Origin: a candidate division WWE3 bacterium RIFCSPHIGHO2_01_FULL_42_13
GTDB taxonomy: Bacteria > Patescibacteriota > WWE3 > UBA101185 > UBA10185
Assembly: GCA_001772625.1 (NCBI GenBank)
Contig: MEVA01000006.1
Span: 27,839 to 91,838 of the forward strand
Direction of reading: 5' to 3'
DNA: 64,000 bases
The translations under genes and the position numbers were made by a program. Of this stretch, positions 25,867 through 41,520 are shown piece by piece (position 1 is the first letter of the stretch; the number at the start of each line of letters is the position of its first letter). The notes beneath the pieces are model-generated. The model worked only from the letters and a program-made list of their open reading frames with translations. It was not told the DNA's origin and did not search any database.

Positions 25867-27642
25867 ATGGCTATCTTAACTAAAAACAAAGGAATCGAAG
25901 ACGTTTTGTTTGAAAAGAAACTTTTAACCTCAGATCAAGTTTCTGCCATTAATCTTGAACACTTAAACACCGGCAAATCCATCGACCAAATAATTAAAGA
26001 GCGAAATTTTGTTAGCAACAACGACTACATCAAGGCGTTTGGCGAAGTGTACGGAATTGAATACATGCCGCTTGAAGGTCGTATAATTGACCCTAAACTT
26101 TCAGAGCTTGTTTCTCACAACCTTGCTCAAAAATATAACGCGGCTCCTTTTGCTCTCGACGAGGTTTCAAAAGTTATATCCGTCGCAATGGTTGACCCAC
26201 TTGATTTGCAAACAATTGAGTTTATAGAAAGAAAAACCGGGTACAAAGTAAAGCCATACATCTCATCTCTTGCAGAAATAGAGGCGGTCAACGAACAGCA
26301 AAGCGGAAAAGCAATTGGCGAAGAAATAAGCGCGGCTTTGGAAGAAATTTCGGCGACAACCCTAAAGATTGAAGAAAACCAGGGAGACTTAACCGCCGAC
26401 GAAGCAACACTTCGTGATGCGCCAATTGCCCGAATCGTGGGAATGATTTTGGAGACAGCGGTAAAAACCGGCGCCTCTGACGTTCATATTGAACCAGAGG
26501 AAACTAAAACCCGCCTGCGATACCGGGTTGACGGAGTTTTGGAAGAAAAAAGAACACTGCCCCGCGAAATGCACGACTCGCTCGTTGCCCGTATAAAAAT
26601 TCTGGCGAGCATGAAAATTGACGAAAAAAGATTACCTCAAGACGGAAGATTTAAAGTTGAAGTTGGCAAAACCAAAACCGACCTTCGTGTGTCTACTCTG
26701 CCAACAGTTTACGGTGAAAAAGTTGTGATCCGTTTGCTTAAAGAAGAAGGTTCGGTTTTTTCATTTAGAGATTTAGGCATTCGCGGACTTTCTCTGTCGC
26801 GACTTGAAGAAGCAATCATTAAACCTGTTGGAATGGTTTTAGTTACAGGGCCAACTGGCTCTGGTAAAACGGTAACGCTTGCTTCAGCTTTGAGCAAACT
26901 TAATACTACTAAAGTAAATATCGTAACCATTGAAGACCCAGTTGAAATTAGGATTCCCGGCGTAAATCAAGTTCAAGTGAATCCTCAAGCGGGCTTAACC
27001 TTTGCCACAGGCTTAAGATCTTTCTTGCGACAAGATCCAAATATTATAATGGTTGGAGAAATTAGAGACGGCGAAACGGCAGAGCTGGCAATTCACGCGG
27101 CACTCACCGGTCACTTGGTGCTTTCGACTTTGCACACAAACTCAGCCGGCGGATCAATCCCAAGACTTTTGGATATGGGGGTTGAAAACTTCCTACTCGC
27201 CTCAACCCTAAACGCAGTTCTTGCGCAAAGACTTGTTCGAAAAATCTGCGTAGATTGTAAGGAAGAATATTCTCCGCCTCCGGAAATCGTCGATGATATA
27301 AGAAGGATTGTTGGCAAAATCCAGCACTCACAGATTTTAATGAGTAAAGATAAAACAATAGTCGACGCGGTAAAACTAGGTCAAGGAGAAAACCTAAAGG
27401 TGTTTCGGGGCAAGGGGTGCGAAAAGTGCGGCGGAACAGGATACCGGGGCAGAACCGGTATTTTCGAGGTTATGATTATGAGCGATAAAATTCAGACACT
27501 GACGCTTGGGCGTTCGTCAGAGTCGCAAATACAAACGGCGGCTGTTGAGGATGGTATGCTAACTTTAGATCAGGACGGGTACTTGAAGGTGTTGGAAGGA
27601 ATAACTACCATTGAAGAAGTATTAAGGGTTTCTAAGGGATGA
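25867..27642 (+). CDS. pilB: Type IV pilus assembly ATPase PilB (GspE family)
   Basis: N-terminal T2SSE_N-like domain. Walker A GPTGSGKT. Asp/His boxes. Tetracysteine CVDC...CEKCGGTGYRGR. Confidence 0.9.
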   Translation: MAILTKNKGIEDVLFEKKLLTSDQVSAINLEHLNTGKSIDQIIKERNFVSNNDYIKAFGEVYGIEYMPLEGRIIDPKLSELVSHNLAQKYNAAPFALDEVSKVISVAMVDPLDLQTIEFIERKTGYKVKPYISSLAEIEAVNEQQSGKAIGEEISAALEEISATTLKIEENQGDLTADEATLRDAPIARIVGMILETAVKTGASDVHIEPEETKTRLRYRVDGVLEEKRTLPREMHDSLVARIKILASMKIDEKRLPQDGRFKVEVGKTKTDLRVSTLPTVYGEKVVIRLLKEEGSVFSFRDLGIRGLSLSRLEEAIIKPVGMVLVTGPTGSGKTVTLASALSKLNTTKVNIVTIEDPVEIRIPGVNQVQVNPQAGLTFATGLRSFLRQDPNIIMVGEIRDGETAELAIHAALTGHLVLSTLHTNSAGGSIPRLLDMGVENFLLASTLNAVLAQRLVRKICVDCKEEYSPPPEIVDDIRRIVGKIQHSQILMSKDKTIVDAVKLGQGENLKVFRGKGCEKCGGTGYRGRTGIFEVMIMSDKIQTLTLGRSSESQIQTAAVEDGMLTLDQDGYLKVLEGITTIEEVLRVSKG

Positions 27643-27654
27643 GAAAGTAATAAC

Positions 27655-28731
27655 ATGGCAAAATTTAACGTATCACAATTATTAGAAAGTGTTGTAAAGA
27701 TGGGGGCATCGGATTTACACCTAAGTGTGGGTGTATCTCCTGTTATAAGGGTAAATACTGCCCTCGCTCCCCTTTCTGACATTCCACCGCTTACGGTTGA
27801 AGATATAGAATTTTTTATTTCGCAAATTTTAAATCAGGAACAAAAAGATATTTTGGATGTAAACAAAGAACTTGATTTATCCGTGGCGCTTGGAAACCAG
27901 GTTAGGTTTAGGGTTAATGTGTTTTTTCAAAAAGGTTACCCATCCATTGCGATGAGAACAATTCCGTTAATTGTGCCCTCTTTGGATAAATTGGGTCTGC
28001 CCCCGATCGTAAACTCCATTTCTGATCTAAAACAGGGCTTGGTTTTAGTGGCAGGTCCCACTGGACACGGAAAATCCACAACAATTGCCGGCATGATTCA
28101 AAGAATTAATGAAACTCGCGCAGAGCATATTCTCACCATCGAAGACCCAATTGAGTACATTTTTACAAACAAAAAATCCCTCATTGAGCAAAGAGAGATG
28201 TATTTGGATACTCACTCATGGGATGTGGCTCTAAAAGCAGTTCTTAGGCAAGACCCAAACGTGGTTTTTATTGGCGAAATGAGAGATCACGATTCTATGG
28301 CCGCCGCGCTTACAATTGCCGAAACCGGACACCTGGTTTTTACGACTCTTCACACAAATTCCGCCTCTCAAACAATAGATAGGGTTATAGATTCATTTCC
28401 CGAAGGCCAGCAGGATCAAATCCGCACGCAACTTTCGCAAAGTTTAGAGGCGGTTATTTCGCAAAGAATAATTCCTTCAAAAGAGGTAGGAATGATTCCT
28501 GCGGTTGAGGTTTTACTGGGCACGTCGGCGGTTAGGAATATGATAAGAGAAGGAAAAAGTCATCAGCTGGATAACGTTATAGATACAAGTGCGGGTGCCG
28601 GAATGGTTTCTTTAAACACAAGTTTAGCGGAGCTTGTTAAAAACGGCCGCATAGAATTAAATGAGGCTATAAAGTACAGTTTGCGCCCCGATGAACTAAA
28701 GCACCTTGTGGGCGCTGGAGTAAATGAATAG
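27655..28731 (+). CDS. pilT: Twitching-motility retraction ATPase PilT
   Basis: GASDLHLSVGVSPVIRV, GPTGHGKST, and about 358 aa. Confidence 0.9.
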   Translation: MAKFNVSQLLESVVKMGASDLHLSVGVSPVIRVNTALAPLSDIPPLTVEDIEFFISQILNQEQKDILDVNKELDLSVALGNQVRFRVNVFFQKGYPSIAMRTIPLIVPSLDKLGLPPIVNSISDLKQGLVLVAGPTGHGKSTTIAGMIQRINETRAEHILTIEDPIEYIFTNKKSLIEQREMYLDTHSWDVALKAVLRQDPNVVFIGEMRDHDSMAAALTIAETGHLVFTTLHTNSASQTIDRVIDSFPEGQQDQIRTQLSQSLEAVISQRIIPSKEVGMIPAVEVLLGTSAVRNMIREGKSHQLDNVIDTSAGAGMVSLNTSLAELVKNGRIELNEAIKYSLRPDELKHLVGAGVNE

Positions 28732-29933
28732 TGCCAATATTTTCGTATAACGCAATTGATTCCGCAGGCAAAAAACGAACAGGAAATGTAGACGCCCGCA
28801 CAAAGTCCTCAGCGGTGGGGTTATTAAAAGAGCAAAGCCTTTATGTTGTAAGCCTTGAGGAACAGACAGAAAGCCTTGTTGACAAGGTTTTAAGCCTTCG
28901 TGGCGTGCCGGATACCGAAGTCGTTGCTTTTACCCGCCAACTTTCCACTATGATTTCAGCAGGCCTTCCTATTGCGCGAGGCCTGGAAGTTTTAGCCGAT
29001 CAAACTTCCAGCAGACAAATGAGAAAAATAGTTTTGGATACACTAAGAGATGTTCAAGGCGGCGCGCAACTTTCGCACGCTTTAGCAAAATATCCAAACG
29101 TTTTTTCTCCAACTTATATTGCTTTAGTACACGCCGGTGAAACTTCGGGAAAGCTGGAAGAAATTTTAAAAAGGCTTGCAGACACTTTAGAAGCCCAGCG
29201 TGAATTTAAATCAAGTTTTACCGGAGCTATGATTTACCCGGCCATCATTTTTGTTGCCATGATCGGCGTTTTTGTCTTAATGATGATCTTTGTTATCCCC
29301 AAGCTTGCCCAAATGTATGAAAGTATGGGTGTTGAGCTTCCGGGCATGACTAAGGCAATGATTGCGGTTTCAGATTTGTTTGTTAAATTCTGGTACGCGT
29401 TTGCGGCGGTATTAGTGTTTTCGTTTTTGGCAATCAGATCATTTTTATCAACCGAAGGAGGCAAAGAATTTTTATACAAGATTTTAATGAAACTTCCGGT
29501 GTTTGGAAAAATTTTAAGACAAAAAGATTTAACTGAATTTACACGAACTTTAAGTTTGCTGGTTGCTTCGGGAATTTCGATTGTTGAGTCTTTGGAAATT
29601 GTTTCGAAAATTGTTATAAACCCCGATTATAAAAATGGCGCGCTGGCGGCCAGCAGGACTTTGGAAAAGGGTGGCTCGCTTTCAGAGTATCTAAAAACTG
29701 ACAGGCACTTCCCCCCGCTTGTAAGCCAAATGGCTTCGGTTGGAGAAGAAACAGGTCAGTTGGACGAAGTTTTATCACGAGTTGGAGAGTATTTTGCGTT
29801 AGAAACAGCTCACGCGGTAAAAGGGTTGTCATCCGCTTTGGAACCAGTCATACTTATCCTGTTGGGCGGAATGGTTGGACTTCTGATAGTTTCAATCATC
29901 ACGCCTATTTACAAGATTACTAGTGCTCTGTAA
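28731..29933 (+). CDS. pilC: Type IV pilus platform protein PilC (GspF family)
   Basis: Duplicated T2SSF domains and three TM segments. GTG start overlaps the pilT stop by 1 nt. Confidence 0.9.
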   Translation: MPIFSYNAIDSAGKKRTGNVDARTKSSAVGLLKEQSLYVVSLEEQTESLVDKVLSLRGVPDTEVVAFTRQLSTMISAGLPIARGLEVLADQTSSRQMRKIVLDTLRDVQGGAQLSHALAKYPNVFSPTYIALVHAGETSGKLEEILKRLADTLEAQREFKSSFTGAMIYPAIIFVAMIGVFVLMMIFVIPKLAQMYESMGVELPGMTKAMIAVSDLFVKFWYAFAAVLVFSFLAIRSFLSTEGGKEFLYKILMKLPVFGKILRQKDLTEFTRTLSLLVASGISIVESLEIVSKIVINPDYKNGALAASRTLEKGGSLSEYLKTDRHFPPLVSQMASVGEETGQLDEVLSRVGEYFALETAHAVKGLSSALEPVILILLGGMVGLLIVSIITPIYKITSAL

Positions 29934-29960
29934 TTTATTGTTTGTTGAAAGGCTTTTGAA

Positions 29961-30482
29961 GTGAAAATAGGACGAAAACAAAAAAGACAAAGAGGTTTTG
30001 CAGGCTTTACATTAGTTGAACTTCTTGTTGTAGTGGCAATTGTGGCGGTTTTAGCAGGCGTTATTGTTGTAGCAATAAATCCGGCTGCCCTTCTTCAAAA
30101 AAATAGAGACGCGATGAGACTTGATGATTTGGATAATGTTCATAGAGCTTTGTCTTTGGCTTTGGCTGACGGCGAAGTAACTTTGGTTGAAACCGGAACT
30201 TGTAACAACTGTACTTCCGGAAGTGGCACGCAAGCAGTTGATGGAACAGGTTGGGTTAAGTTTGAAGTTCCAACGGGAAAAACAGGTTTAGCAAAGTATT
30301 TACCAGAACTACCCCTAGATCCTTTGAACTTGGGATCTAATATTTATACCTTTGGTTCTGCTGCTGGGGCTTACGAAATAAATGTTGTGCTTGAATCCGC
30401 GGATAATGCTCCAAAGATGAGTACTGACGGTGGCAATGCCGCAGGCGTTTGGGAAATTGGAACTTCGCTAACGATACTTTGA
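29961..30482 (+). CDS. Type IV pilin (probable major pilin)
   Basis: Prepilin leader ...QRGFAG|FTLVELLVVVAIVAVLAG with Glu at +5. Position directly after pilC. Strong terminator downstream. Confidence 0.8.
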   Translation: MKIGRKQKRQRGFAGFTLVELLVVVAIVAVLAGVIVVAINPAALLQKNRDAMRLDDLDNVHRALSLALADGEVTLVETGTCNNCTSGSGTQAVDGTGWVKFEVPTGKTGLAKYLPELPLDPLNLGSNIYTFGSAAGAYEINVVLESADNAPKMSTDGGNAAGVWEIGTSLTIL

Positions 30483-30564
30483 GATTTTAGAAATTTGGAT
30501 GGCCTTGCATAGGCCGTGGTTTTATTGGGACCGTCGGGTGAGATGGTTCTCACTGCCCTACTAG

Positions 30565-30600
30565 AGAAGTCCCCGCTTAACGCGGGGACTTCTTAATTTT
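30565..30600. terminator. Strong hairpin terminator between the convergent pilin and protease genes
   Basis: 12-bp perfect stem AGAAGTCCCCGC / GCGGGGACTTCT (30565-30576 / 30582-30593), followed by TAATTTT. Confidence 0.7.
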
Positions 30601-30638
30601 ACAAGGGTACTCGATCACCTCGAGCCTCCAAGAATGAC

Positions 30639-31469
30639 TTACCAGCCAGATTTTTCCAGTATTTCTTTTGCCGGCATTTGGATGATTTTACTCCAATTTC
30701 TTTCACTCCCACGATTTTTTATAAAGTCCTTAACAAGATGATAGCCTACAGAATATCCGGTCCAAACGGCGTACTCATCATTCCCAAAAAATATTTTATT
30801 GTAGTCATCGTATGTATAGTTGTCTGAGAGCAGTAGGCCTCCAAAGCTATCAAATACTTTTCTTGCTACATCTTTACTTAAGGCTTGTGCCCACGGAGCT
30901 TGCTTACCACCCAAAACATATTCTCTAAAGTTTTCTGCCAGGCCCTCAAAAACAAGATTATCTATAAGTTTTTCTGAATCTGAGTTAGGAAAATATAAAA
31001 AGCGTATCGCGTGGTTATATTCGTGTGCCAAAGTGTTAGCTAAGTTTTTATTAAAATCTTTAAGTTTTGTACTATCTGGGTGAACATATAAGTGAATGAC
31101 GTTGGCGTAAGGTGTGTACCCATTAACCCCAAACATTTTTTCTTTTACAAAGCCTGAGAGTGTGGGAAAGATGTAAATCTCCAAATTGTTTTTTGTTGGT
31201 AGAGTCTCTACGACGGCATTGAGAGTCTTTTTAATAATCCCAAGCACATCACCCACCCCTATTGACAGATCCACTCCTTTATTTTCCAAAGAACTGAATA
31301 TGAATCCATGTAGCGATTCAGGTAGGTACTTTCCTTCTCTATAGCCCGCGTACCCATTTTTGGTCGGTTTAATTTTTTCGAAAATTAAATTACCATTAAC
31401 CCTTTCGACTTCCTGGATCAACTGAATATGGGCAGTTTTATTATTTTTTAGTTTTATCTTTTTATGCAT
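30639..31469 (-). CDS. HExxH zinc-dependent protease-like protein (DUF2268-like); candidate leader peptidase
   Basis: LAHEYNHAIRF...VFEGLAENF. The ORF is open to a TTG at 31526, but that stretch is occupied by the hairpin. ATG 31469 (MHKKIKL) or 31499 is more likely. Confidence 0.55.
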   Translation of the reverse strand: MHKKIKLKNNKTAHIQLIQEVERVNGNLIFEKIKPTKNGYAGYREGKYLPESLHGFIFSSLENKGVDLSIGVGDVLGIIKKTLNAVVETLPTKNNLEIYIFPTLSGFVKEKMFGVNGYTPYANVIHLYVHPDSTKLKDFNKNLANTLAHEYNHAIRFLYFPNSDSEKLIDNLVFEGLAENFREYVLGGKQAPWAQALSKDVARKVFDSFGGLLLSDNYTYDDYNKIFFGNDEYAVWTGYSVGYHLVKDFIKNRGSERNWSKIIQMPAKEILEKSGW

Positions 31470-31492
31470 ACCTTTGTATATATGGAAGAATT

Positions 31493-31524
31493 GAGCCATA
31501 GTCAAATGTATCTGACTATGGCTC
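31493..31524 (-). promoter_or_regulatory. Intercistronic 11-bp perfect hairpin between the precursor and protease genes
   Basis: GAGCCATAGTC (31493-31503) / GACTATGGCTC (31514-31524) with a 10-nt loop. No U-tract follows on the minus strand. Confidence 0.6.
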
Positions 31525-31547
31525 AAAACCGAATCTAAGAGCGGAAA

Positions 31548-31700
31548 TCAGCCTCCTTTACTACTTCCGCCACCACAATTACTGCTGCCCTTGCTGCCGC
31601 CTTTACTACTCCCGCCGCATTTGGGTGGGTTGGGGGACATTTCTTTAGCAAGGTTGCGCACAGTAACAGTGATCTTGTTTTTCACCGCTGGCTTTTTCAT
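31548..31700 (-). CDS. TOMM/LAP precursor peptide (50 aa), absent from the ORF track
   Basis: Hand translation gives MKKPAVKNKITVTVRNLAKEMSPNPPKCGGSSKGGSKGSSNCGGGSSKGG*. AAAGGAGAA lies 6 nt upstream of the ATG. It is 18 nt downstream of the YcaO stop on the same strand. Confidence 0.7.
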   Translation of the reverse strand: MKKPAVKNKITVTVRNLAKEMSPNPPKCGGSSKGGSKGSSNCGGGSSKGG

Positions 31701-31718
31701 GCCGGTTCTCCTTTCGTG

Positions 31719-33239
31719 TTAGGCAAACGGGTGTGTAAATACCCCATTTTGCCAAGATTTTTTGCTTAGCCCCGTGGCTTTAGGCACAGTAGCTAACCTT
31801 CTCATCCCTAAAGCTTCAGTGCCGTAACCAAAAGATATTGGCACCAGACCTTGAGGAATGGCTCGAATGATATGTACTCCCGCCTCTTTCATGTCTGGCG
31901 GAGTAAGATCAAGAGCGTAGGTTTCTACATCTCTAGTCTTAAGTAGCTCGACAAGGTTGTCAAGCCGTTGGAATTTTTCATCACCTCCTTTATTAGGATT
32001 TTCTGGTTTTCCGGACCACAGAAACTCCGCTTTTCTTAAGTGTGTACTGGAGGCATACAATGCTGCATGGTCCTCCGTACTTTGTACTTTAGTTGGGTCC
32101 TTCAGAGTATAAACAGTGTGGTCTTTTCTAAAGTCCCAATAAAGCTGCTGCTCAAGCTCGTCTAGGGCTCTACCGATTGCTGAAGACAAGGTGGGTCTGC
32201 TAGACATACCTAGCAAAAGACAAGTTTGTCCACTCTCACTTACGGCGACAGCAAGAACGACCGGTGTAAGATCCATCGTCATGTTAACCAGGTGTACCTC
32301 ATACCCAACAGATTTTATTCTTTCCACCTTAGCGTTTTGATCTGAAGACAAGCAGTCTCTTCGAATGAGGGGGTGAGAGATTCTGTTTACCCAAGTTATC
32401 ATGTAAGCATCGCGCTCGATTGCCTCAAACAAACCTCCGATCAGGGATGATTCAAAGCTGAAACCTCCTGCTACACCGGAAGAATTTGAGTAGGTATACA
32501 GCCGTGGTGTTACTGCTTTAAGGATTGGGTAATACAGTAACTCCACAGGAAGATAGAACTCTTTCCCGCTGGCTAACTTCACCACCGATTTCCAGAAGTA
32601 CCTGGCTTTTGGATCGTATCGCTTGAAAGGTAGCCCTTTGTCGTACTGTAGATTTTTGTATGTGACTACCGATCTGGGATCAAGTGCAGAGCCTCCTAAC
32701 TCCTTAGCTGATGCATTAAGGAGCTTTTCTTTAGGAACTATACCACTGGCAACTCTTTCCAAAGCTTCCATTATAGCTTTTATTTCCGCCCTAACTTTGG
32801 AACTTGAGAACCCTGCAGAAAAATCCTCTTCGCCGAGCACATTGAGGTATTTTGCAGAGAAAAGGTGATTTCCGCCAAGGTTAAAGGAGGACATCTCTTG
32901 AGACGTGTTGTGAACAACGGGTATGTAACTTCCTTTGCCCACAAATGCTTCTCGTAGCGTGCGAAGCCGACTTTTTACTGATAGCCCTTTTGATTTACTG
33001 GGCTTTGTTTTGCCGAAGCTGACAGCGCCGATACCTTTTAGTTGCGCAAGCGTCTTTGAGATCTCCTGGTTCACTGCACTTGTCACTTTTTGCTGACCGC
33101 TTAGCACCCGGCTCAGGTAGGCTAAGTCCCTCTCTGACTCAGATTCAATGTCTATGCTTCTCTCCCCCTTTCTAAGTTCCAAGCCATTTAGTGTTGGTAA
33201 CAGTTCCCAGCCTTCAGATAGAGTTATCCATTTATTCAT
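31719..33239 (-). CDS. YcaO-family cyclodehydratase (SagD-like)
   Basis: AEIKAIMEALERVASG and SNSSGVAGGFSFESSLIGGLFEAIERDAYMITW, with a C-terminal ...THPFA. Start overlaps the upstream stop (ATGAATAA). Confidence 0.85.
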   Translation of the reverse strand: MNKWITLSEGWELLPTLNGLELRKGERSIDIESESERDLAYLSRVLSGQQKVTSAVNQEISKTLAQLKGIGAVSFGKTKPSKSKGLSVKSRLRTLREAFVGKGSYIPVVHNTSQEMSSFNLGGNHLFSAKYLNVLGEEDFSAGFSSSKVRAEIKAIMEALERVASGIVPKEKLLNASAKELGGSALDPRSVVTYKNLQYDKGLPFKRYDPKARYFWKSVVKLASGKEFYLPVELLYYPILKAVTPRLYTYSNSSGVAGGFSFESSLIGGLFEAIERDAYMITWVNRISHPLIRRDCLSSDQNAKVERIKSVGYEVHLVNMTMDLTPVVLAVAVSESGQTCLLLGMSSRPTLSSAIGRALDELEQQLYWDFRKDHTVYTLKDPTKVQSTEDHAALYASSTHLRKAEFLWSGKPENPNKGGDEKFQRLDNLVELLKTRDVETYALDLTPPDMKEAGVHIIRAIPQGLVPISFGYGTEALGMRRLATVPKATGLSKKSWQNGVFTHPFA

Positions 33240-34161
33240 CTTTAACTCCGATTAACATAGTTATCAACGGAGCTTCTTCGGGAAAGCTCAGACCGATAAG
33301 TTTAGCTAACTTGTAATCATCGAAACCCCCGTACTCGACCGAGCCGATCAAAGAGCTTTCTGCGCAATAGAGATAGCAGTTTTGCGCAGCATGCCCTGCT
33401 TCCAACAGAGCGAAGCGATAACCTCTATTCGAGTACTTTTGTGTTGTCTTTTGAAACTTGGAAGATATTACTACTATTGCAGCAATGCCTCCAATTTCAG
33501 CAAGACCGTCGAAGAAAATCTCGTTTACTTTTTGGGAATCTACCTCACCAACTTTCTTAATGGAATCTTTTTCTGGGACAAAAACACCGGTGTTTCCATT
33601 AAGAATAATTGTATGGAGCATTAATGGGTAAAGTCCCCCGCCAGACGGTACAGTTCCATGGTTGTTAGCTTTACCGTACATTGCCCAAAGTAAAGTCCGC
33701 AAGATTTCTTCTGGGATAGGATTTCCATTAAAGTTTCTTATCGACTTTCTTTTCTGAAGCAGTTGGATCAGGTCAATTTGTACGCCCACAGTTGTGTCCA
33801 GCAGACCGTTTGGTTGTTCAAGCATTGCTGCAATTTCCCTATCCCCCAGATTCTTGAAGAAGGGCATTGGGTTTGAGCCGGCCAAGTGGGCGAGGAGAAA
33901 GTAGCTGTCTGGTTCCGTAACGACACCCTCTTTACTCAGAGTGCTTAAAACCTCCACCGCCTCTTCCCGTGAATACTTGGGATATGCAGCAGAACAAATT
34001 TGCTCAAGCGTGGTGTATCCGGCACATCTAGGTAAAAGAAAAGAGATTAGTCCGTTTGCCCCCTCTATTCTTACTTCTTTCCCTGGAAGTATGAATACAA
34101 AAGAATTCTTGTCTTTGTATCCATAGGCGCATACAAGCGGGTGTGAATCTTTCCTAAGCAT
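33232..34161 (-). CDS. SagB-type (nitroreductase-fold, FMN) azoline dehydrogenase with an N-terminal extension
   Basis: RKSIRNFNGNPIPEEILRTLLWAMYG...VPSGGGLYPL...RFALLEAGHAAQN. AAGGAGA SD upstream. Confidence 0.85.
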   Translation of the reverse strand: MLRKDSHPLVCAYGYKDKNSFVFILPGKEVRIEGANGLISFLLPRCAGYTTLEQICSAAYPKYSREEAVEVLSTLSKEGVVTEPDSYFLLAHLAGSNPMPFFKNLGDREIAAMLEQPNGLLDTTVGVQIDLIQLLQKRKSIRNFNGNPIPEEILRTLLWAMYGKANNHGTVPSGGGLYPLMLHTIILNGNTGVFVPEKDSIKKVGEVDSQKVNEIFFDGLAEIGGIAAIVVISSKFQKTTQKYSNRGYRFALLEAGHAAQNCYLYCAESSLIGSVEYGGFDDYKLAKLIGLSFPEEAPLITMLIGVKDE

Positions 34162-34329
34162 TTTATCTCCTTATTTTATTATCAAGGTTCGAATTTGTTT
34201 GGTTTATTACACTAAAATTTGGTGATTTTGTAGAGTCTCTCTGATAGGCGGGTAACATAATTATACACTGTTACCGGTTTTGGCTTAAACCCTATTGCTA
34301 TCCCCCACCTCAACCTATATATTAAAACC

Positions 34330-35211
34330 ATGATTGAAATATTGGGTCTTGTGTTAATTTTTATTGCCGGGTTATTTGTTGGATCTTTCCTAGATGTTGT
34401 TTCCGACAGGGTCCCTGCCCATCAGTCCCCTCTCAAAGGCCGTTCAAAATGCCCGCACTGTAACGCAACGCTTGGCCCCAAAGATCTTATTCCCCTGCTT
34501 TCGTTTATTTTGCTTCGCGGCAAATGTAGATATTGCGGCAAGAAAATTTCACTTTATTATCCAGCAGCGGAAATTCTAACCGGTGTAACCTTTGCCGCAC
34601 TTGCCTATTACCTTGGTGTATTTACCCAGCCAAACCCGCTAATCTGGCTTAATTTTGGCTACCTTGCGGCACTTGCCTCTTTTCTTATTGTAATTTTGTT
34701 TGCCGATATGAAGTACAAACTCATTCCAAACCGCGTTGTGGTTCCGGCCATAATTTTTGTGCTGTTTTTCATGGTTGGAAGCTTTGCGTTTATTGCGGCA
34801 AGTTCGTATTCGCAAATGAAAGCGGATCCTTTTGGGCAATATTTGCTTGAGGTTGGTTATTGGCAAAGCCAGATGATTTATTTGCTGCAAAGTTTATTGA
34901 TTACAATTGTTAGCGCGCTTTTGCTTGCCGGATTTTTCAAGCTTTTGATTTGGATTACGAAAGGAAAAGGCATGGGCGGTGGCGATGTGAAATTGGCATT
35001 TTTGGTTGGGCTTGTTAACGGCTTTCCGTTAAATGTTGTGGCTGTGGTTTTAGCTTTTGTAAGCGGAGCAGTGTTTAGCGGCGTTTTGATGTTACTGCGC
35101 CGAAAGGGCTTGCGCGATGTTATCCCCTTTGGACCATTCTTGGTTTTTGGCTCTGTTGTGGCCTTTATCTTTGGCCAGCAGATCTTTAACTGGTATTTGG
35201 CTCTTATCTGA
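34330..35211 (+). CDS. pilD: Prepilin peptidase / N-methyltransferase PilD (A24 family)
   Basis: CPHCNATL...CRYCGKKISLYYPAAEILTG. GGGDVKL. Multi-TM. Confidence 0.9.
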   Translation: MIEILGLVLIFIAGLFVGSFLDVVSDRVPAHQSPLKGRSKCPHCNATLGPKDLIPLLSFILLRGKCRYCGKKISLYYPAAEILTGVTFAALAYYLGVFTQPNPLIWLNFGYLAALASFLIVILFADMKYKLIPNRVVVPAIIFVLFFMVGSFAFIAASSYSQMKADPFGQYLLEVGYWQSQMIYLLQSLLITIVSALLLAGFFKLLIWITKGKGMGGGDVKLAFLVGLVNGFPLNVVAVVLAFVSGAVFSGVLMLLRRKGLRDVIPFGPFLVFGSVVAFIFGQQIFNWYLALI

Positions 35212-36295: not shown

Positions 36296-36856
36296 GTGAG
36301 TAGACTTAGCCTGCCTAAAATAACTCCTTTAATTCTTTGTTTAGCCTTTATTTTAATTGTTGGTTTTGGTGCCTTTTACTTTATCCCAGGTTTCCGTGAG
36401 AAATTTATGCAAAGTGACAATAATGGAGCAAGCCCTTTTGGTGAAGATAGCCTTGTTGATAATGTCCCATACGAACCTGAGTTAAATGAGGCGGCAAAAG
36501 CTTTTTATAATTTTCTAAACGTCTCAAAAGAACCTTCTTATTGGGAAAATTGGGATTATAAAACTTCTTTCTTCCAAGGAGATGTTTTATCTGTTGATTC
36601 CGAAGCCCGTACTGCAACAATAAACGTTGATCGCCCTACCGGACTTGGTCAACTTACTAATGTACCCATACTTTGTGAGATTGAAAACACGGCTATTTTT
36701 TACGATGTAAATATGGTCTTTCAGGACAGCAACATTGATATTTTTAATGAACTTGAGATAGGGGAAATACTTTACGCTAACTGCTTGGATGCTAATTGCA
36801 CAAGTGTGGGCGGATACTGTACTTTGGTTGAGAGGGATATTTACGATGACGAATAA
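36296..36856 (+). CDS. Membrane-anchored hypothetical protein
   Basis: The ORF is open from 36152, but that part spans the terminator. The GTG at 36296 gives MSRLSLPKITPLILCLAFILIVGFGAFYF. Start is uncertain. Confidence 0.4.
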   Translation: MSRLSLPKITPLILCLAFILIVGFGAFYFIPGFREKFMQSDNNGASPFGEDSLVDNVPYEPELNEAAKAFYNFLNVSKEPSYWENWDYKTSFFQGDVLSVDSEARTATINVDRPTGLGQLTNVPILCEIENTAIFYDVNMVFQDSNIDIFNELEIGEILYANCLDANCTSVGGYCTLVERDIYDDE

Positions 36857-38978
36857 AAAAACCTTTTTAATAGCCCTTTCCTTTTTATTCCTTGGTAGTC
36901 TTATGCGAACTAACGTCTACGCTGCGCAGTGTACGGCTGGTGAGTGTAACCGCCCCGGCGAATATATTTGCGATGGTGGAACAAAGTGTTGTACGTGCAG
37001 AGGAGATGAGTGTGGCTGCCCAAGTTATGTTTGCTCACAAAACTATATCTATCAAGGACTAAGTACAGCGGGTGAGGTAGTGTGTGCACAAGATGTTACT
37101 GAAAACAATTGCGTCACGTGTAAGGGCCCTCTTAGTGAATTTGATGGTGATTATTGCAACGTTATCCCCTCTGTTAACAATGGCATTTACTGTGACGGAA
37201 CATGTAATAGCAACCAAGTTTGCACAAGTTATATAGTGAGAGAAGGAGTTGATGTTGGTGGAACCTGCAGATCCTGTGGTGGCAGCGGGGGTAACGCCTG
37301 CGGTTGTAAAAAAGTCTGCTCTTCCAGTGGCGGGATATGCGGCTATGGTAGTGATAGTAGCCCTGTGGACGGCCAACCCGACCCTAAATATAACTGTTAC
37401 GGTAATCAATGTGATGATGACGATGGGGCATGTACAGTAGATGCAATCGGCACATACGGACCACCAATCAGCACAGACAAGAGTACGTACGCGTATGCTA
37501 ATAATGTCAAATTTGCTTGGAATGAACCGTACTCACGAAAAATGGTAGATGGAGAATGGGAGTACTACATTGACTGGGGAGTTTGTTGCGGAAGCTGTGG
37601 CGCCGGTGTCAAATTGTACGTCAACGGCAAGCACCTTTATACCCACACCGCATCTGCGTATATAAAATCCCTTTCCGCGTCATTGTTTAAGATTGGAAGT
37701 AATACCTGGTATGTGTTGGCTTATAACGGGAACGCTGGGCAAATTAAATCAGGCACGGGAACCTTTACCGTTGAGGCACCGCCGCCAGTTACGGTTCGTG
37801 GTAAAATTTGGAACGCCACCGGTCAGGCCTGTAACGTAAGTTCCAACAAAAAAGATACCCTGGAAATTGTAAGAGGTAGCGCGCAAGGAAATGTTGCCAC
37901 TGCTATAAAATTACGAATGGACGGCACAACTGCCGGGAGTTGGAACACCAATTATGATGGCTACAGCTACCGTTTCACAAACGTTGAGCAGGGCATACAT
38001 TCTATAAGCGCCAATGTCCCCGATCCTGTTGGTTACCCTAACTCCTCATACGAACTCGCTTGTGTAAATAATGCGGCGGGCAGTGTAATTCCTTCGGTTA
38101 ACGCTAGTGCTGACCCAACCATTTTAAACCTTGGTTATGAAATTACTACCTCCGCCTCCAGCTGGTTCCAGTCTATTGGTGGAGATATTTTTGGCGGTTG
38201 CGACGTAGCAAGCTGCGCAAACAGCGTTTCAGTAGACGTTCCCGGAAACGGTGAAACTTTGGGTGGTTTTAATAACAATCTAATTGCCACCCCCGGAACT
38301 CTTTTTGGCGACAGCGGACTTTCTGTTACAGACGATAGCTATTCGCAGGACAGCAACCGCCACTTAGAATATATGAACTCGGTTGATTTGTGGCCCTCTT
38401 CTTTAACCTTCACTCCCCCATCCTCTGCGACCCAAATAAATAGTAATTGTTCAAGCATGTTTCAAGGCAATAATCTGGACGCGGGAATTGTTTACAAAGC
38501 TTCGGTTGGTTGTGTTCAAAGTGGACTTGACGGGCTAACCGGTAATTATAATTTTACTCACGATGGTGTTGCAGTTATCTATGTTCAAGGAACAGGTACG
38601 CTTACGTTTAAAAAGACCTTTACTGGAAGTAGCAACGGCCGAAGAAGAGTCTTGTTTGTAACTCAAGGGCCAGTCAAATTTAACGCCGATATTGGAGATG
38701 CCGCGCCTACCACGTCAACCGCGGCACACATTCAGGCCGGTATAATTTCGGAGAGCAGCATTACATTTTTGTCCACGGGGCTAGAAGATGACACAACCAT
38801 AATTGTTGAGGGCCCACTTGTTACAAAAACCGGCACTATAAATAATAGTAGGAACCGGGGAATTAACAACGGATACCCGGCCGTGGTTGTTAAGTACAAC
38901 ACGCTTTACCTGACTTCTCTAACCGCCTCACAACCGGCAGGACTTTCAGCTGTAGATATTTCGTGGGTGTTAAACTAG
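36846..38978 (+). CDS. Large secreted Cys-rich protein; candidate pilus-associated adhesin
   Basis: Signal peptide MTNKKTFLIALSFLFLGSLMRTNVYA|AQC. About 25 Cys in the next roughly 185 aa (hand count). Beta-rich remainder. Immediately upstream of the PilX-like and minor pilin genes. Confidence 0.65.
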   Translation: MTNKKTFLIALSFLFLGSLMRTNVYAAQCTAGECNRPGEYICDGGTKCCTCRGDECGCPSYVCSQNYIYQGLSTAGEVVCAQDVTENNCVTCKGPLSEFDGDYCNVIPSVNNGIYCDGTCNSNQVCTSYIVREGVDVGGTCRSCGGSGGNACGCKKVCSSSGGICGYGSDSSPVDGQPDPKYNCYGNQCDDDDGACTVDAIGTYGPPISTDKSTYAYANNVKFAWNEPYSRKMVDGEWEYYIDWGVCCGSCGAGVKLYVNGKHLYTHTASAYIKSLSASLFKIGSNTWYVLAYNGNAGQIKSGTGTFTVEAPPPVTVRGKIWNATGQACNVSSNKKDTLEIVRGSAQGNVATAIKLRMDGTTAGSWNTNYDGYSYRFTNVEQGIHSISANVPDPVGYPNSSYELACVNNAAGSVIPSVNASADPTILNLGYEITTSASSWFQSIGGDIFGGCDVASCANSVSVDVPGNGETLGGFNNNLIATPGTLFGDSGLSVTDDSYSQDSNRHLEYMNSVDLWPSSLTFTPPSSATQINSNCSSMFQGNNLDAGIVYKASVGCVQSGLDGLTGNYNFTHDGVAVIYVQGTGTLTFKKTFTGSSNGRRRVLFVTQGPVKFNADIGDAAPTTSTAAHIQAGIISESSITFLSTGLEDDTTIIVEGPLVTKTGTINNSRNRGINNGYPAVVVKYNTLYLTSLTASQPAGLSAVDISWVLN

Positions 38979-39867: not shown

Positions 39868-39927
39868 AAATTAAGCACTATGAAATACTTGATCTTTTGT
39901 AAAAATAAACAGTATAATAATAGAGAT

Positions 39928-40446
39928 ATGATTAGAAACGAAAAAGGTTTTACACTTATTGAACTTCTTATCGTTATCGTAATTATCGGTATTTTAGCCG
40001 GTGTTTTAATTGCTATTATTGACCCAGTCTCCCAGCAAAACCGTGCCCGCGACGCAGGCATTGAAGCTTCCATGAACAAGGTGGTTTTGGCAACCGAGGG
40101 GTACGTTTCAGCCTACGGCACCGCCCCAATTGACACTCAATTTATTGCCCAGTTTAAAGACGGCACGGTAACAGAGCGCGGCACAACCTGTGCACAAACA
40201 ACGGGCGATCCTGACTGCGAATTTGGCGTTTCGGCCAATACCCTACCCGCCACATGCAGTAGCACCTGGTCTGGAACGGGAACAAACCAGTGTTATTTTA
40301 GATACCTTGCGGTAGAAGGAACTTCAAACTTTACTATTTTTGCTAAATCCGCGGGTTTGGAAGGCATAGTGTTTAAGTTTGAAAACAATGGTGTCAACGC
40401 TGGAATTATTCAGCAGTGCCCTGCTTCCGATCCAATTGGATGTTAA
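39928..40446 (+). CDS. Prepilin-type N-terminal cleavage/methylation domain protein (pilin)
   Basis: MIRNEKG|FTLIELLIVIVIIGILAG. ORF is open from 39880. TATAAT sits 9 nt upstream of the ATG. Confidence 0.75.
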   Translation: MIRNEKGFTLIELLIVIVIIGILAGVLIAIIDPVSQQNRARDAGIEASMNKVVLATEGYVSAYGTAPIDTQFIAQFKDGTVTERGTTCAQTTGDPDCEFGVSANTLPATCSSTWSGTGTNQCYFRYLAVEGTSNFTIFAKSAGLEGIVFKFENNGVNAGIIQQCPASDPIGC

Positions 40447-40916
40447 AAACTTTAAGATCTAATTCCGCCGGCTTTACCCTCATCGAACTATTAATCGTAA
40501 TTTCAGTTATTGCAGCACTGTCTGTTGTTTTGGTAAGTATTGTTGACCCTGTGGGCTCGCAGGGAAAAGCGCGCGATGGGGTTCGCTTGAGCCATGTTAA
40601 AAACCTGGCCGAGGCAATAGAGTCGTACAGGCAAATTGAAGGTTCGTACCCGCTTGATGCCGATCCGCAAAACCCCGCCTCTACCTTGCGTACCACCTAC
40701 ATCCGCACGTGGCCCTCTCCCCTTGCCAATGACGGCACGGAAGATCCCGCTTGGGCTTATATATACGCTCAGGCAGGTACGGGTTTTGTTCTTTACTCGC
40801 CAAATTCCCGCGGCGGGTGCTACAAATATCAAACAGATTGGCGAAATGCTATGAACTGCCCTATCGCCGAATGTAGCACGGACATTTCTTCAGCTTCAGA
40901 TTGTAGCGAATTGTAA
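40440..40916 (+). CDS. Prepilin-type pilin-like protein
   Basis: MLKTLRSNSAG|FTLIELLIVISVIAAL. ATG overlaps the upstream stop (ATGTTAA). Confidence 0.75.
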   Translation: MLKTLRSNSAGFTLIELLIVISVIAALSVVLVSIVDPVGSQGKARDGVRLSHVKNLAEAIESYRQIEGSYPLDADPQNPASTLRTTYIRTWPSPLANDGTEDPAWAYIYAQAGTGFVLYSPNSRGGCYKYQTDWRNAMNCPIAECSTDISSASDCSEL

Positions 40917-40953
40917 ATTGTAATTAGTTCAAAGCTCGCGCTATACTTAATTT

Positions 40954-41472
40954 ATGCTTCTGCCAAAAAACCAACGCGGATTTACTTTAATTGAACTTTT
41001 GGTTGTGGTAGTGGTTATTAGTGCGCTTTCCGGGGTCGTAATTTCTATTATCAATTCCGGTGGCTTTAGAGACAAAGCCCGCGATGCCCAAAGAATTGCG
41101 GATTTAAAACAAACCCAAACCGCTTTAGAACTTTATTTTTCTGATTTTAGAGCATACCCACTAAGCACAAGTGGTGGGGGCTGGATTCTTTTAACTGGCT
41201 CTGACGCTGTGTCTGGTGCCCTTTCCCCTATTTATATAAACGAGGTTCCAATTGATCCCCAAAGTTCGGGGACAAACGCCGGTCCTTGTAGCAGCCCCAC
41301 AATCTTCAGGTACAATTACCGTTCAGATGGTACATATTACATCCTAACCGCTATTATGGCCGTGGCAACCTCTAATGACCAAAACCTGTGCGAGGATCTA
41401 AATAACTGGAATTCCAGCTGTGGAGGTGGTTTTGCCACTCAGGATGTTTGTTACGGAGTTGAGAACCCTTAA
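40954..41472 (+). CDS. Prepilin-type pilin (GspG/PulG-like)
   Basis: MLLPKNQRG|FTLIELLVVVVVISAL...ARDAQRIADLKQTQTALELY. TATACT sits 6 nt upstream of the ATG. Confidence 0.8.
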   Translation: MLLPKNQRGFTLIELLVVVVVISALSGVVISIINSGGFRDKARDAQRIADLKQTQTALELYFSDFRAYPLSTSGGGWILLTGSDAVSGALSPIYINEVPIDPQSSGTNAGPCSSPTIFRYNYRSDGTYYILTAIMAVATSNDQNLCEDLNNWNSSCGGGFATQDVCYGVENP

Positions 41473-41520
41473 TTCCCTTAGCTTCATCCCCCGCTCTTTT
41501 CTTTGTGCTAACATTTACTC

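Follow-up and report, generated by a model that had tools for sequence, protein, structure and literature searches.

Azoline-forming YcaO proteins are usually described as needing an E1-like or Ocin-ThiF partner for substrate recognition and activation, and clusters without such a partner have been flagged as poorly understood (PMC4603692, in excerpt). The locus studied here, which lies in a window of 64,000 nucleotides (the whole stretch of DNA that was analysed), raises the question of which protein reads the precursor leader when a YcaO enzyme is encoded next to a dehydrogenase and no E1-like protein.

Gene content of the operon

Four genes were found on the minus strand, in the following operon order.

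33232..34161, minus strand: SagB-type FMN dehydrogenase gene (B protein; ORF of 309 amino acids; Pfam, TIGR03605)
31719..33239, minus strand: SagD-family YcaO cyclodehydratase gene (D protein; ORF of 506 amino acids; Pfam, TIGR03604)
31548..31700, minus strand: precursor peptide gene (50 amino acids, leader then Gly/Ser/Cys-rich core; ORF, with homologous small ORFs at six related loci)
30639..31526, minus strand: DUF2268 Zn-metalloprotease gene (HExxH), candidate leader peptidase (PF10026, E 3.1e-31)

The dehydrogenase and YcaO genes share 8 nt, where the stop region of the former runs into the start of the latter, and a gap of 18 nt separates the YcaO gene from the precursor ORF. A sequence-only reading of the locus had counted only two enzyme genes; this holds within 31719..34161 but fails beyond it, where the DUF2268 gene belongs to the same operon. 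A promoter and terminator scan of 30300-34450 returned four promoter-like and four terminator-like sites, which was not above shuffles. The host of the operon is a bacterium with a tiny genome.

Family assignment of the two enzymes

The dehydrogenase was matched by Pfam Nitroreductase over residues 136-305 (E 3.8e-18) and by TIGR03605 SagB over residues 169-305 (78.5 bits, cut-off 78.4). Together with K242-Y243, which is invariant in 41 sequences and is the counterpart of the catalytic KY of McbC (PMC8442711, in excerpt), this identifies the protein as a SagB-family FMN dehydrogenase of a BCD-type LAP/TOMM synthetase. Residues 143-461 of the second enzyme were matched by Pfam YcaO (E 3.7e-54) and residues 143-506 by TIGR03604 SagD (229.5 bits, cut-off 219.25), which makes it a SagD-family YcaO. 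Its C terminus ends in a conserved H-P-F-A, and a proline-rich C terminus is typical of azoline-forming YcaOs (PMC8442711, in excerpt). Residues E158, E161, R162, E272, E275, R276, D277, H503 and P504 are invariant in 15 sequences; the ALERV block begins at residue 159, with E158, L160, E161 and R162 invariant.

Both enzymes were found to carry a conserved N-terminal extension. That of the dehydrogenase is taken as conserved because 44 relatives (P0002-P0045; 293-364 amino acids, 34-43% identity) align over 89-100% of the query, and that of the YcaO protein because 14 relatives (478-523 amino acids, 38-47% identical) cover 93-100%. Neither extension was matched by Pfam or NCBIfam in a whole-protein search. 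Both ORFs and the quoted N-terminal sequence of the dehydrogenase were correct in the earlier reading. It put ~95 residues ahead of the nitroreductase fold; ~135 residues lie ahead of the Pfam core, made up of ~85 residues of winged helix and ~50 of linker. For the YcaO protein the extension itself was confirmed, its length being 142-158 residues and not exactly the ~140 given.

A predicted RRE at the N terminus of the dehydrogenase

The dehydrogenase was divided into three parts.

33913..34140, minus strand: canonical RRE (winged helix), residues ~8-83 (AF2 model, VIA-align, Foldseek, profile search)
33757..33912, minus strand: linker between RRE and nitroreductase core, residues 84-135 (conservation and model-to-BmdC alignment)
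33247..33756, minus strand: nitroreductase-fold catalytic domain, residues 136-305 (Pfam)

The AF2 model, in which pLDDT exceeded 92 across residues 1-90, places strands at 13-17, 20-25 and 28-33 and helices at 36-45, 52-59 and 65-77, so that residues ~8-83 are predicted with high confidence to have the canonical RRE fold, an antiparallel sheet of three strands and then three helices. The best VIA-align match of this domain was the PbtF RRE (Z 11.2, rmsd 2.2, 80 of 86 residues aligned, 21% identity). PbtF, TigE, MibB, MccB, ThcOx, BmdC and LynD all reached Z values of at least 8.3, and every one of the seven chains with Z of 8 or more is a RiPP or RiPP-derived RRE carrier. The top seven Foldseek matches were PbtF, TruD and LynD structures (8t19, E 1.1e-3, TM 0.77), and by both tools the domain thus resembles solved RREs above other folds. 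At the level of sequence profiles, a search against PDB sequences gave matches to PbtF (E 0.034) and PqqD (E 0.26), and Pfam PqqD scored 12.5 bits (E 0.124), below its cut-off of 23.4. The four top rows of that PDB search were PPR proteins, which were set aside as repeat-summed artefacts because none held a significant single stretch.

A pattern of strands followed by three helices had previously been read as a possible winged-helix RRE, and structure prediction had been named beforehand as a check capable of refuting it. The model bears the suggestion out with a confident winged helix on the dehydrogenase (residues 13-77), whose best structural matches are RREs, and with a weaker RRE-like fold on the YcaO protein (see below).

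Within the linker a F-H-x-x-S-x-N-P-M-P stretch is conserved, and by analogy with BmdC and McbC the linker is probably a wrapping loop. Residues 4..138 of the dehydrogenase were aligned with residues 2..131 of BmdC (122 aligned, Z 8.3 by VIA-align). With an N-terminal RRE-like domain, a linker and a C-terminal nitroreductase-fold oxidase in one chain, the protein is an RRE-Ox didomain.

A profile built from the dehydrogenase RRE also matched the N termini (~residues 27-93) of 18 separate proteins encoded just upstream of YcaO genes, with E values from 4e-6 to 1e-3 within the set of loci. Every one of the 18 proved to be a TIGR03882 C protein, and 17 scored above the cut-off. The dehydrogenase RRE is homologous to the N-terminal RRE of canonical C proteins. 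No other canonical RRE is present in the cluster, and it would be the domain that reads the precursor leader.

Search for an E1-like partner

The genome that carries the operon (87.23% complete) was searched with TIGR03603, TIGR03882, TIGR03693 and ThiF (PF00899), and no match was obtained at E <= 10; TfuA likewise gave none in the same assembly, and the dehydrogenase-RRE profile found the dehydrogenase itself only. TIGR03603 and TIGR03882 were absent from all five relatives' genomes examined. ThiF gave 12 matches in these five genomes, none of which reached the cut-off. Eleven fell within the initial ~115 positions of the 238-position profile, and we take them to be generic nucleotide-binding-fold matches. 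An E1-like C protein or Ocin-ThiF-like F protein of a BCD-type synthetase, separate or fused to the YcaO, was thus found neither in the operon's own genome nor in those of the five relatives.

Some related YcaO proteins are longer (603-625 amino acids; L052, L070, L088 and L090), with fronts of ~250 residues. Pfam and PDB profile searches gave no E1-like signal in these four fronts, and NCBIfam gave none in the two to which it was applied (L052 and L070). Weak winged-helix-type rows were all that came up.

A conventional partner could be encoded in the 13% of the genome that the assembly lacks, or be too diverged for the profiles. The incomplete assembly leaves room for this, and the Streptamidine protein AmiB is an E1-like partner that was overlooked by conventional sequence analysis and RRE-Finder (PMC8442711, in excerpt). 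We nevertheless give such a missed partner hardly any credence: the four E1-like profiles are silent in this genome, two of them are silent in the five relatives, the RRE profile that detects C proteins elsewhere matches nothing else here, and the placement of RREs across related loci, described below, speaks against it as well.

RRE placement across related loci

The comparison was extended to 80 related genome loci. An RRE was found on the dehydrogenase in 29 of them (8 with split proteins, 21 with the dehydrogenase fused to the YcaO) and on a separate E1-like C protein in 18, and no locus of the 80 had it on both. SagB proteins of the 18 C-protein loci align only from profile position 85 or later. 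When ORFs of at least 150 amino acids within 4 kb were examined at 10 of the loci with an RRE on the dehydrogenase, none had a TIGR03603 or TIGR03882 match (NCBIfam). The absence of a separate E1-like partner, as originally claimed, holds as far as this 87%-complete genome shows, and the search for a partner gene that co-varies with the cluster found mutual exclusion of dehydrogenase RRE and C protein instead. Since structure prediction and the partner search both favoured it, the earlier inference that substrate recognition is embedded in the enzymes is supported.

Fourteen dehydrogenase-fused RREs have been reported by RRE-Finder, whose authors regard such RREs as possibly vestigial. The mutual exclusion across loci argues that RREs of this kind are, in at least some cases, the working leader readers.

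The precursor leader and the protease

The 50-residue ORF has the make-up expected of a LAP/TOMM precursor, since it neighbours the YcaO gene and encodes a leader and then a core of the Cys/Ser/Thr/Gly-rich kind, and it is kept in six related loci, where the homologous small ORFs directly follow the YcaO gene. One leader motif was delimited.

31638..31676, minus strand: leader motif K-I-x-V-T-x-R-x-L-x-x-E-[LM], precursor residues 9-21 (alignment of 7 precursors)

The motif is kept in all seven close-family precursors, with T13 and E20 invariant, and similar strand motifs occur next to fused and other split forms. By analogy with McbA/McbB (PMC6395948), it is predicted to dock on the RRE sheet as a strand. 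The DUF2268 family also adjoins the cluster at two further loci (L003 and L075), and the protease is a candidate for the leader peptidase.

The N-terminal extension of the YcaO protein

Two parts were distinguished in the extension.

33006..33239, minus strand: diverged RRE-like winged helix, YcaO residues 1-78 (AF2, VIA-align, hhalign)
32814..33005, minus strand: stretch modelled with low confidence, joining the RRE-like domain to the Pfam YcaO domain, residues 79-142 (pLDDT 46-54; no Pfam match)

In the AF2 model (pLDDT 71-95 across residues 1-80), residues 1-78 have one strand more and one helix fewer than the three-stranded sheet and three helices of an RRE: the four strands are accompanied by helices at 36-46 and 58-70, and RRE helix 2 is missing. 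The domain is termed RRE-like, and not RRE, because it has two helices only and an 8-residue gap at helix 2. VIA-align matched it to the lasso B1 RRE (Z 6.8), PbtF (6.6), ThcOx (6.3), TbiB1 (6.3), LynD (5.3) and PqqD (5.3); six of the ten top matches were RiPP RREs, and the best Z of 6.8 lies inside the tool's range for best hits of unrelated proteins. Foldseek gave weak RRE-like matches (E ~0.1). The domain was aligned with that of the dehydrogenase by hhalign at a probability of 70% (E 4e-5), the 8-residue gap falling at helix 2, and its profile matched no RRE among PDB sequences. Rows for Aurora kinase, TPX2 and similar proteins in that search had E values of 0.08 or more and were taken as chance. 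Across 15 sequences G48 and L67 do not vary at all, and W11, P15, G19, E21 and E26 hardly vary. These data are consistent with a second, degenerate RRE-like domain, for which the evidence is weaker than for the dehydrogenase RRE. One idea is that it is the remnant of a CD fusion.

The distribution of this domain differs from that of the dehydrogenase RRE. It was found only where dehydrogenase and YcaO are separate proteins, and in the 21 loci with fused RRE-SagB-YcaO proteins the dehydrogenase-type RRE is kept and the YcaO N-terminal domain is absent. At one locus (L082) a single region was matched by both the YcaO N-terminal domain profile (8e-22) and the dehydrogenase-type RRE profile (1e-4), and two loci (L056 and L067) encode RRE-YcaO proteins of 498 amino acids without a SagB domain.

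It could be that cyclodehydration relies on the YcaO domain to read the leader, with the dehydrogenase RRE vestigial or serving oxidation only and the two enzymes acting independently. The conserved residues of the domain, its likeness to RREs by VIA-align and hhalign, the region at L082, the existence of RRE-YcaO proteins without SagB and the description of dehydrogenase RREs as possibly vestigial in the available RRE-Finder text would all fit. This reading is judged unlikely, given that the fused proteins dispense with the YcaO domain, that of the two domains the one on the dehydrogenase is canonical and more strongly conserved, that helix 2 is missing from the YcaO domain, and that strand-like leader motifs stand beside dehydrogenase-type RREs in three architectures.

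That the two N-terminal domains are instead docking modules joining dehydrogenase and YcaO, the latter needing no leader-binding domain, like bottromycin stand-alone YcaOs, we hold to be very unlikely. Fused proteins retain the dehydrogenase-type RRE although docking is superfluous there, the precursors keep a strand-like leader motif, which needs a reader, and the closest structural relatives are leader-bound RREs. The confinement of the YcaO domain to separate-protein forms is what such modules would predict, and there are known cases of stand-alone YcaOs that lack a C protein (PMC4603692, in excerpt).

A proposed mechanism

We consider it probable that this minimal LAP/TOMM operon works without an E1-like C or Ocin-ThiF partner, the leader-docking RRE having moved onto the catalytic proteins. 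The analysis itself shows which domain families are present, how they are predicted to fold, that E1-like genes are missing and that an RRE sits on the dehydrogenase or on a C protein but never on both. Leader binding, the choice of RRE, a dehydrogenase-YcaO complex and the chemistry are inferred, as follows. The precursor leader strand would pair with strand 3 of the dehydrogenase RRE, and possibly with the RRE-like domain of the YcaO protein too. The YcaO enzyme would then use ATP for cyclodehydration of core Cys and Ser residues to azolines, the FMN dehydrogenase would oxidize these to azoles, and the leader would be cut off by the DUF2268 protease. The two enzymes would act as one unit; their genes overlap, and in relatives one RRE-SagB-YcaO polypeptide combines them. 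Where such systems have been characterised, the YcaO is potentiated by orders of magnitude through the E1-like protein (PMC4603692, in excerpt), and it counts against the preferred reading that this role appears to have no counterpart among the components shown here. Further points against it are the sub-threshold Pfam PqqD score of the dehydrogenase domain, the published views of such domains as possibly vestigial (RRE-Finder) or a relic (BmdC), the incomplete assembly and, for the YcaO domain, the missing helix, a best Z inside the range for unrelated hits and a PDB profile search that returned no RRE.

A bolder version would supply that counterpart, and is put forward only tentatively, as possible but doubtful: the RRE-bearing SagB protein may be a previously unrecognised class of YcaO partner that tethers the leader and both assembles with and activates the cyclodehydratase, fully replacing the C protein, with the YcaO RRE-like domain docking only when the enzymes are separate.

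Significance

For one large group of partnerless clusters, the operon and its relatives offer a concrete, testable answer, namely the same RRE relocated to the dehydrogenase. If the RRE-bearing SagB replaces the C protein, a family of several hundred 50%-identity sequence clusters would form azolines efficiently with no need of E1-like domains. In practical terms, the operon provides a very small two-enzyme azole synthetase for biochemistry and peptide engineering, reduced to a single enzyme in relatives, and refined rules for genome mining where the C protein has been used to call LAP clusters.

Comparison with known systems

ThcOx serves cyanobactin pathways, in which the LynD/TruD-type heterocyclases have their own RRE and E1-like domain. 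In this azoline oxidase (PDB 5LQ4), as here, an RRE-type domain lies N-terminal to a nitroreductase-fold oxidase, and the VIA-align match to it had a Z of 8.4 for the dehydrogenase domain and 6.3 for the YcaO domain; as far as the available description goes, ThcOx has two RRE copies, unlike the dehydrogenase. The bacillamide NRPS trans-oxidase BmdC (PDB 7LY4) is built alike: in a chain of 325 amino acids, compared with 309 here, an RRE-like winged helix of 96 residues is followed by a wrapping loop of 45 and by an Ox domain. It serves an NRPS carrier protein, whereas the present enzyme belongs to a RiPP operon with a leader-bearing precursor, and its RRE-like domain is regarded by its authors as a relic (PMC8795117, in excerpt, for the statements on BmdC).

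In structure and in sequence alike, the dehydrogenase domain was matched best by PbtF (PDB 8T19), an Ocin-ThiF-like F protein. It comes from thiopeptide pathways, in which the RRE is on a separate cyclodehydratase partner and not on the dehydrogenase. McbBCD (PDB 6GRI/6GOS) and BCD-type synthetases share with the operon a SagD/McbD-type YcaO, an FMN dehydrogenase with a catalytic Lys-Tyr and a Gly/Ser/Cys-rich precursor. The leader of McbBCD is read as an added strand on the RRE sheet (PMC6395948, in excerpt), and the same is predicted here; however, its RRE belongs to McbB, an E1-like protein that is also in contact with the nucleotide of the YcaO, and no such protein was found in this case. 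McbC, unlike the dehydrogenase here, is without an N-terminal domain (PMC8795117, in excerpt).

An oxidase domain fused to a YcaO has been mentioned in passing (PMC10783134). A literature search of main texts (supplements such as those of RRE-Finder and Sharrar et al. 2020 may list these proteins) found no paper in which a LAP cluster lacking an E1-like protein depends on a dehydrogenase RRE alone to read the leader.

Bottromycin uses a follower peptide. Its stand-alone YcaOs and the truncated CD fusions of the haloazolisins are azoline-type YcaOs without a recognisable C protein, as here, and the haloazolisin leader-binding protein is stated to be unknown; no RRE is described for either system in the excerpt of the source (PMC4603692), whereas both enzymes of the present operon carry RRE-type domains.

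The arrangement itself, which had been thought uncommon, is not unprecedented, as ThcOx and BmdC are solved RRE-oxidase didomains and further cases are known from RRE-Finder. Such didomains are already published, as is the cluster type itself, from CPR bacteria. The linear azole peptide clusters of CPR genomes described by Sharrar et al. 2020 are of the same type as the operon, with a YcaO, a nitroreductase, a peptidase and an adjacent precursor, although the excerpt discusses neither the lack of an E1-like partner nor the site of leader recognition; 110 clusters were reported in 93 further CPR genomes, the nitroreductase adjoining the YcaO in 89 of them (PMC7298704, in excerpt).

The operon and its enzymes

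Reading of the ORFs showed an operon of four co-directional genes on the minus strand:

33232-34161, minus: dehydrogenase gene (309-aa ORF)
31719-33239, minus: YcaO gene (506-aa ORF), its start overlapping the dehydrogenase gene by 8 nt
31548-31700, minus: precursor ORF (50 aa), beginning 18 nt past YcaO
30639-31526, minus: DUF2268 Zn-protease gene (295 aa; HExxH motif, E 3.1e-31)

Dehydrogenase residues 136-305 were identified as Pfam Nitroreductase (E 3.8e-18), and the protein scored 78.5 bits against TIGR03605 SagB (cut-off 78.4). Residues 143-461 of the YcaO protein matched Pfam YcaO, with 229.5 bits against the TIGR03604 SagD family (cut-off 219.25). The observation, made in the sequence-only reading, of two enzyme ORFs with N-terminal extensions is thus confirmed. 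Its statement that only two enzyme genes are present holds within 31719-34161 but not just outside, where the DUF2268 Zn-protease is a third; likewise, the YcaO extension is real, but its length ahead of the ALERV block, put at about 140 residues, is not exact, as the block begins at residue 159. The protein collection lists the dehydrogenase as the 291-aa P0001, covering 94% of the 309-aa ORF. The longer ORF is the better call, since relatives align from residue 1-8, with the first RiPP recognition element (RRE) strand included. In the 50-aa ORF, MKKPAVKNKITVTVRNLAKEMSPNPPKCGGSSKGGSKGSSNCGGGSSKGG, a leader stands ahead of a Gly/Ser/Cys core.

The operon sits among genes at window positions 25867-30482, 34330-35211 and 39880-42024. 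Their translations were taken to indicate a type IV pilus set, with products resembling a secretion ATPase, PilT and PilC, besides several others that have what is presumably the prepilin start G-F-T-L-[IV]-E-L-L; the prepilin peptidase at 34330-35211 was the sole pilus-type neighbour confirmed by Pfam. A 729-aa ORF at 36789-38978 on the plus strand is very Cys- and Gly-rich in its first third.

Conservation of the extensions and catalytic residues

Both N-terminal extensions are conserved across relatives, query coverage being 89-100% for 44 dehydrogenases (293-364 aa; 34-43% identity) and 93-100% for 14 YcaO proteins (478-523 aa; 38-47% identity). The 41-sequence dehydrogenase alignment showed G48 of the extension to be invariant and F23, P26, G34, L43, C46 and L75 nearly so, while the 15-sequence YcaO alignment gave G48 and L67 as invariant and W11, P15, G19, E21 and E26 as nearly invariant. 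The catalytic parts of both enzymes look intact, judging by their residues. YcaO E158/E161/R162 and E272/E275/R276/D277 were invariant, and acidic motifs of this kind presumably serve in ATP and Mg binding. At the YcaO C-terminus H-P-F-A was conserved, and dehydrogenase K242-Y243 was invariant; passages of one paper (PMC8442711) describe a proline-rich C-terminus as typical of azoline-forming YcaOs, and the catalytic KY of McbC, to which K242-Y243 correspond.

Search for an E1-like partner

The absence of an E1-like partner, claimed earlier, was borne out as far as profiles reached. Across the window's own assembly (641,607 bases, 17 contigs, 87% complete), TIGR03603, TIGR03882, TIGR03693, ThiF and TfuA gave no match at E <=10, and a profile of the dehydrogenase N-terminal domain (NTD) matched nothing besides the dehydrogenase itself. 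TIGR03882 and TIGR03603 also had no match in any of the five genomes holding the related loci L002-L006. ThiF gave 12 matches in these genomes, all below cut-off; 11 were confined to the opening ~115 of the profile's 238 positions (mainly about 12-60), one was at 136-212, and we take them to be generic nucleotide-binding-fold matches.

The dehydrogenase extension

AlphaFold2 modelled dehydrogenase residues 1-90 with pLDDT >92, predicting strands at 13-17, 20-25 and 28-33 and helices at 36-45, 52-59 and 65-77. In a Foldseek search of the PDB the top match was PbtF (8t19; E 1.1e-3, TM 0.77 on target, rmsd 2.3), then TruD and LynD, with TigE, TbiB1, McbB, ThcOx, CteB, PqqD and NisB lower. VIA-align against 48,161 representative chains returned seven with Z >=8: PbtF (Z 11.2, rmsd 2.2, 80 aligned, 21% identity), TigE (9.2), MibB (9.0), MccB (8.8), ThcOx (8.4), BmdC (8.3) and LynD (8.3). 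The sequence signal was weak, both for Pfam PqqD on residues about 35-74 (12.5 bits, E 0.124) and for the NTD profile (domain only, residues 1-138, 20 sequences from DNA references) against PDB sequences (PbtF E 0.034, PqqD E 0.26). As modelled, the extension is a canonical RRE, so that the predicted fold and the PbtF match support the earlier inference of an RRE-like winged helix at this N-terminus. Residues 84-135 hold a conserved F-H-x-x-S-x-N-P-M-P stretch and align by VIA-align with the BmdC segment behind the RRE-like domain of that protein.

The YcaO extension

AlphaFold2 predicted four strands and two helices for the YcaO NTD; pLDDT was 71-95 for residues 1-80 and dropped to about 50 thereafter. 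The leading Foldseek matches were the peptide-clamp region of MccB and PbtF (E about 0.1). VIA-align gave a lasso B1 RRE (Z 6.8), PbtF (6.6), ThcOx (6.3), TbiB1 (6.3), LynD (5.3) and PqqD (5.3), interspersed with other winged helices, and Z <8 can reflect a common arrangement only; the domain is not classed as a bona fide RRE. When the two extension alignments were compared by hhalign (eight sequences only for YcaO), dehydrogenase 16-81 paired with YcaO 15-73 (probability 70%, E 4e-5), with an 8-residue gap in the YcaO NTD at helix 2 of the dehydrogenase domain. The YcaO N-terminus of locus L082 was matched by both profiles (YcaO NTD 8e-22, dehydrogenase NTD 1e-4) and has additional residues at this gap. 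We conclude that the YcaO NTD is probably an RRE descendant that has lost helix 2. Perhaps it offers the leader a second site; alternatively, it may serve in docking, a task required solely where the two enzymes are separate, and this latter role fits the absence of any YcaO-type NTD from fused RRE-SagB-YcaO proteins.

RRE placement across related loci

HMMs from our own alignments were run on all ORFs of >=80 aa in loci L002-L161, and the 80 genome loci were tabulated.

Placement of the dehydrogenase-type RRE in 80 genome loci; the counts are not independent events, because the loci were chosen by YcaO similarity and are mutually related
On split dehydrogenase: 8 (L002-L007, L052, L070)
On single RRE-SagB-YcaO protein, 725-1051 aa: 21 (L009-L015, L020, L022, L026, L031, L032, L036, L043, L048, L050, L062, L068, L074, L075, L076)
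Directly on 498-aa YcaO without SagB domain: 2 (L056, L067)
On separate 298-409-aa protein just upstream of YcaO: 18
SagB-YcaO fusion without RRE match: 1 (L060)
RRE, SagB and YcaO in pieces: 1 (L028)
YcaO and/or SagB match, no RRE of this type: 28
No table row: 1 (L019)

All 18 separate RRE proteins matched TIGR03882, 17 of them above cut-off, which makes them canonical E1-like C proteins. In these loci the alignment of SagB began no earlier than position 85 of the dehydrogenase profile, so that it lacks the N-terminal domain; no genome locus of the 80 carried an RRE on both C protein and dehydrogenase. An NCBIfam scan covered 110 ORFs from 17 loci: TIGR03603 and TIGR03882 had no match in the 10 RRE-on-dehydrogenase loci scanned (L007, L009-L015, L020, L022), and one or the other matched in L016, L018, L019, L021 and L024, where the dehydrogenase was short wherever one was seen.

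Fused proteins also occurred in metagenome loci L093, L097 and L141; the records with fused proteins, genome and metagenome loci together, are labelled from Patescibacteria to Burkholderiales-type bacteria. L031 and L048 each hold two tandem RRE-SagB-YcaO genes, and the L075 protein has Nitroreductase at 141-323 and YcaO at 367-685. At L028:4868-7104, RRE, SagB and SagB+YcaO pieces are spread over three overlapping ORFs, suggesting a fused gene that frameshifts or errors of assembly have disrupted.

The 498-aa SagD-type proteins (L056:5629-7122 and L067:3648-5141; records labelled Nomurabacteria) carry the dehydrogenase-type RRE at residues 2-87 (E 2e-8) and neither a SagB nor an E1-like domain, and neither locus had a SagB match elsewhere. 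Behind split RRE-dehydrogenases, YcaOs of 603-625 aa (L052:5212-7071, L070:5197-7071, L090:3014-4870, L088:4435-6243) have about 230-250 residues preceding the YcaO domain. Their first 80 residues gave weak RRE-type matches (E 7.7e-5 in L090, 0.03 in L052); the rest matched nothing in Pfam or among PDB sequences in any of these YcaOs, nor in NCBIfam for the two covered by that scan (L052 and L070).

Spread and neighbouring genes

The RRE-dehydrogenase profile, searched against 1.84 billion cluster representatives, matched 495 proteins at E <=1e-3, 282 at 1e-10 and 7 at 1e-30; among the best 150, 70 were >=700 aa and 40 were of 280-410 aa. Of 401 genomes sampled from the phylum, 9 had an RRE-dehydrogenase, the window's own included; of 12 from the same family, none had one. 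As an accessory trait the cluster is patchily spread, which fits horizontal transfer. The closest related loci are in records labelled Patescibacteria, Saccharibacteria and Yanofskybacteria. In the closest relatives a convergent Amidohydro_1 protein of about 435 aa takes the place of the DUF2268 protease, and two loci additionally have a 270-aa APH-type phosphotransferase (coordinates listed jointly: L002:8689-9999, L004:2961-4280, L005:3665-4960 (minus strand), L002:7871-8683, L008:1619-2431).

Proposed mechanism and known systems

A small ORF lies behind YcaO in L002, L003, L004, L006, L008 and L084, and alignment of seven precursors gave a shared K-I-x-V-T-x-R-x-L-x-x-E-[LM], with T13 and E20 invariant. 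Next to fused enzymes (L011, L022) and to further split forms (L052, L070, L086), similar strand-like motifs stand ahead of Gly/Ser/Cys cores. In McbBCD, according to a passage of PMC6395948, leader residues 9-14 form a fourth strand added to the RRE sheet, and by analogy we infer that the window leader would likewise add a strand. The leader would be tethered by the dehydrogenase RRE, Cys and Ser in the core cyclodehydrated by YcaO, the azolines oxidised by the dehydrogenase and the leader cut off by the DUF2268 protease. The overlapping genes and many fusions argue that dehydrogenase and YcaO act as one unit.

Literature searches turned up no account of mutual exclusion between a dehydrogenase RRE and an E1-like C protein, of homology of the dehydrogenase RRE to the C-protein RRE, or of a second, helix-2-less RRE copy on the split-form YcaO. 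Sharrar et al. (PMC7298704) describe 110 CPR clusters with YcaO, nitroreductase, peptidase and precursor, and another paper (PMC10783134) briefly remarks that oxidase-YcaO fusions occur. RRE-Finder reported 14 dehydrogenase-fused RREs, from cyanobactin, LAP and thiopeptide clusters, and termed them possibly vestigial. The window dehydrogenase has the same three-part build as that given for BmdC in a passage of PMC8795117, in which an RRE-like domain of 96 residues is followed by a 45-residue wrapping loop and then the Ox domain, and ThcOx, as described in PMC6395948, bears two RRE copies on an McbC equivalent.
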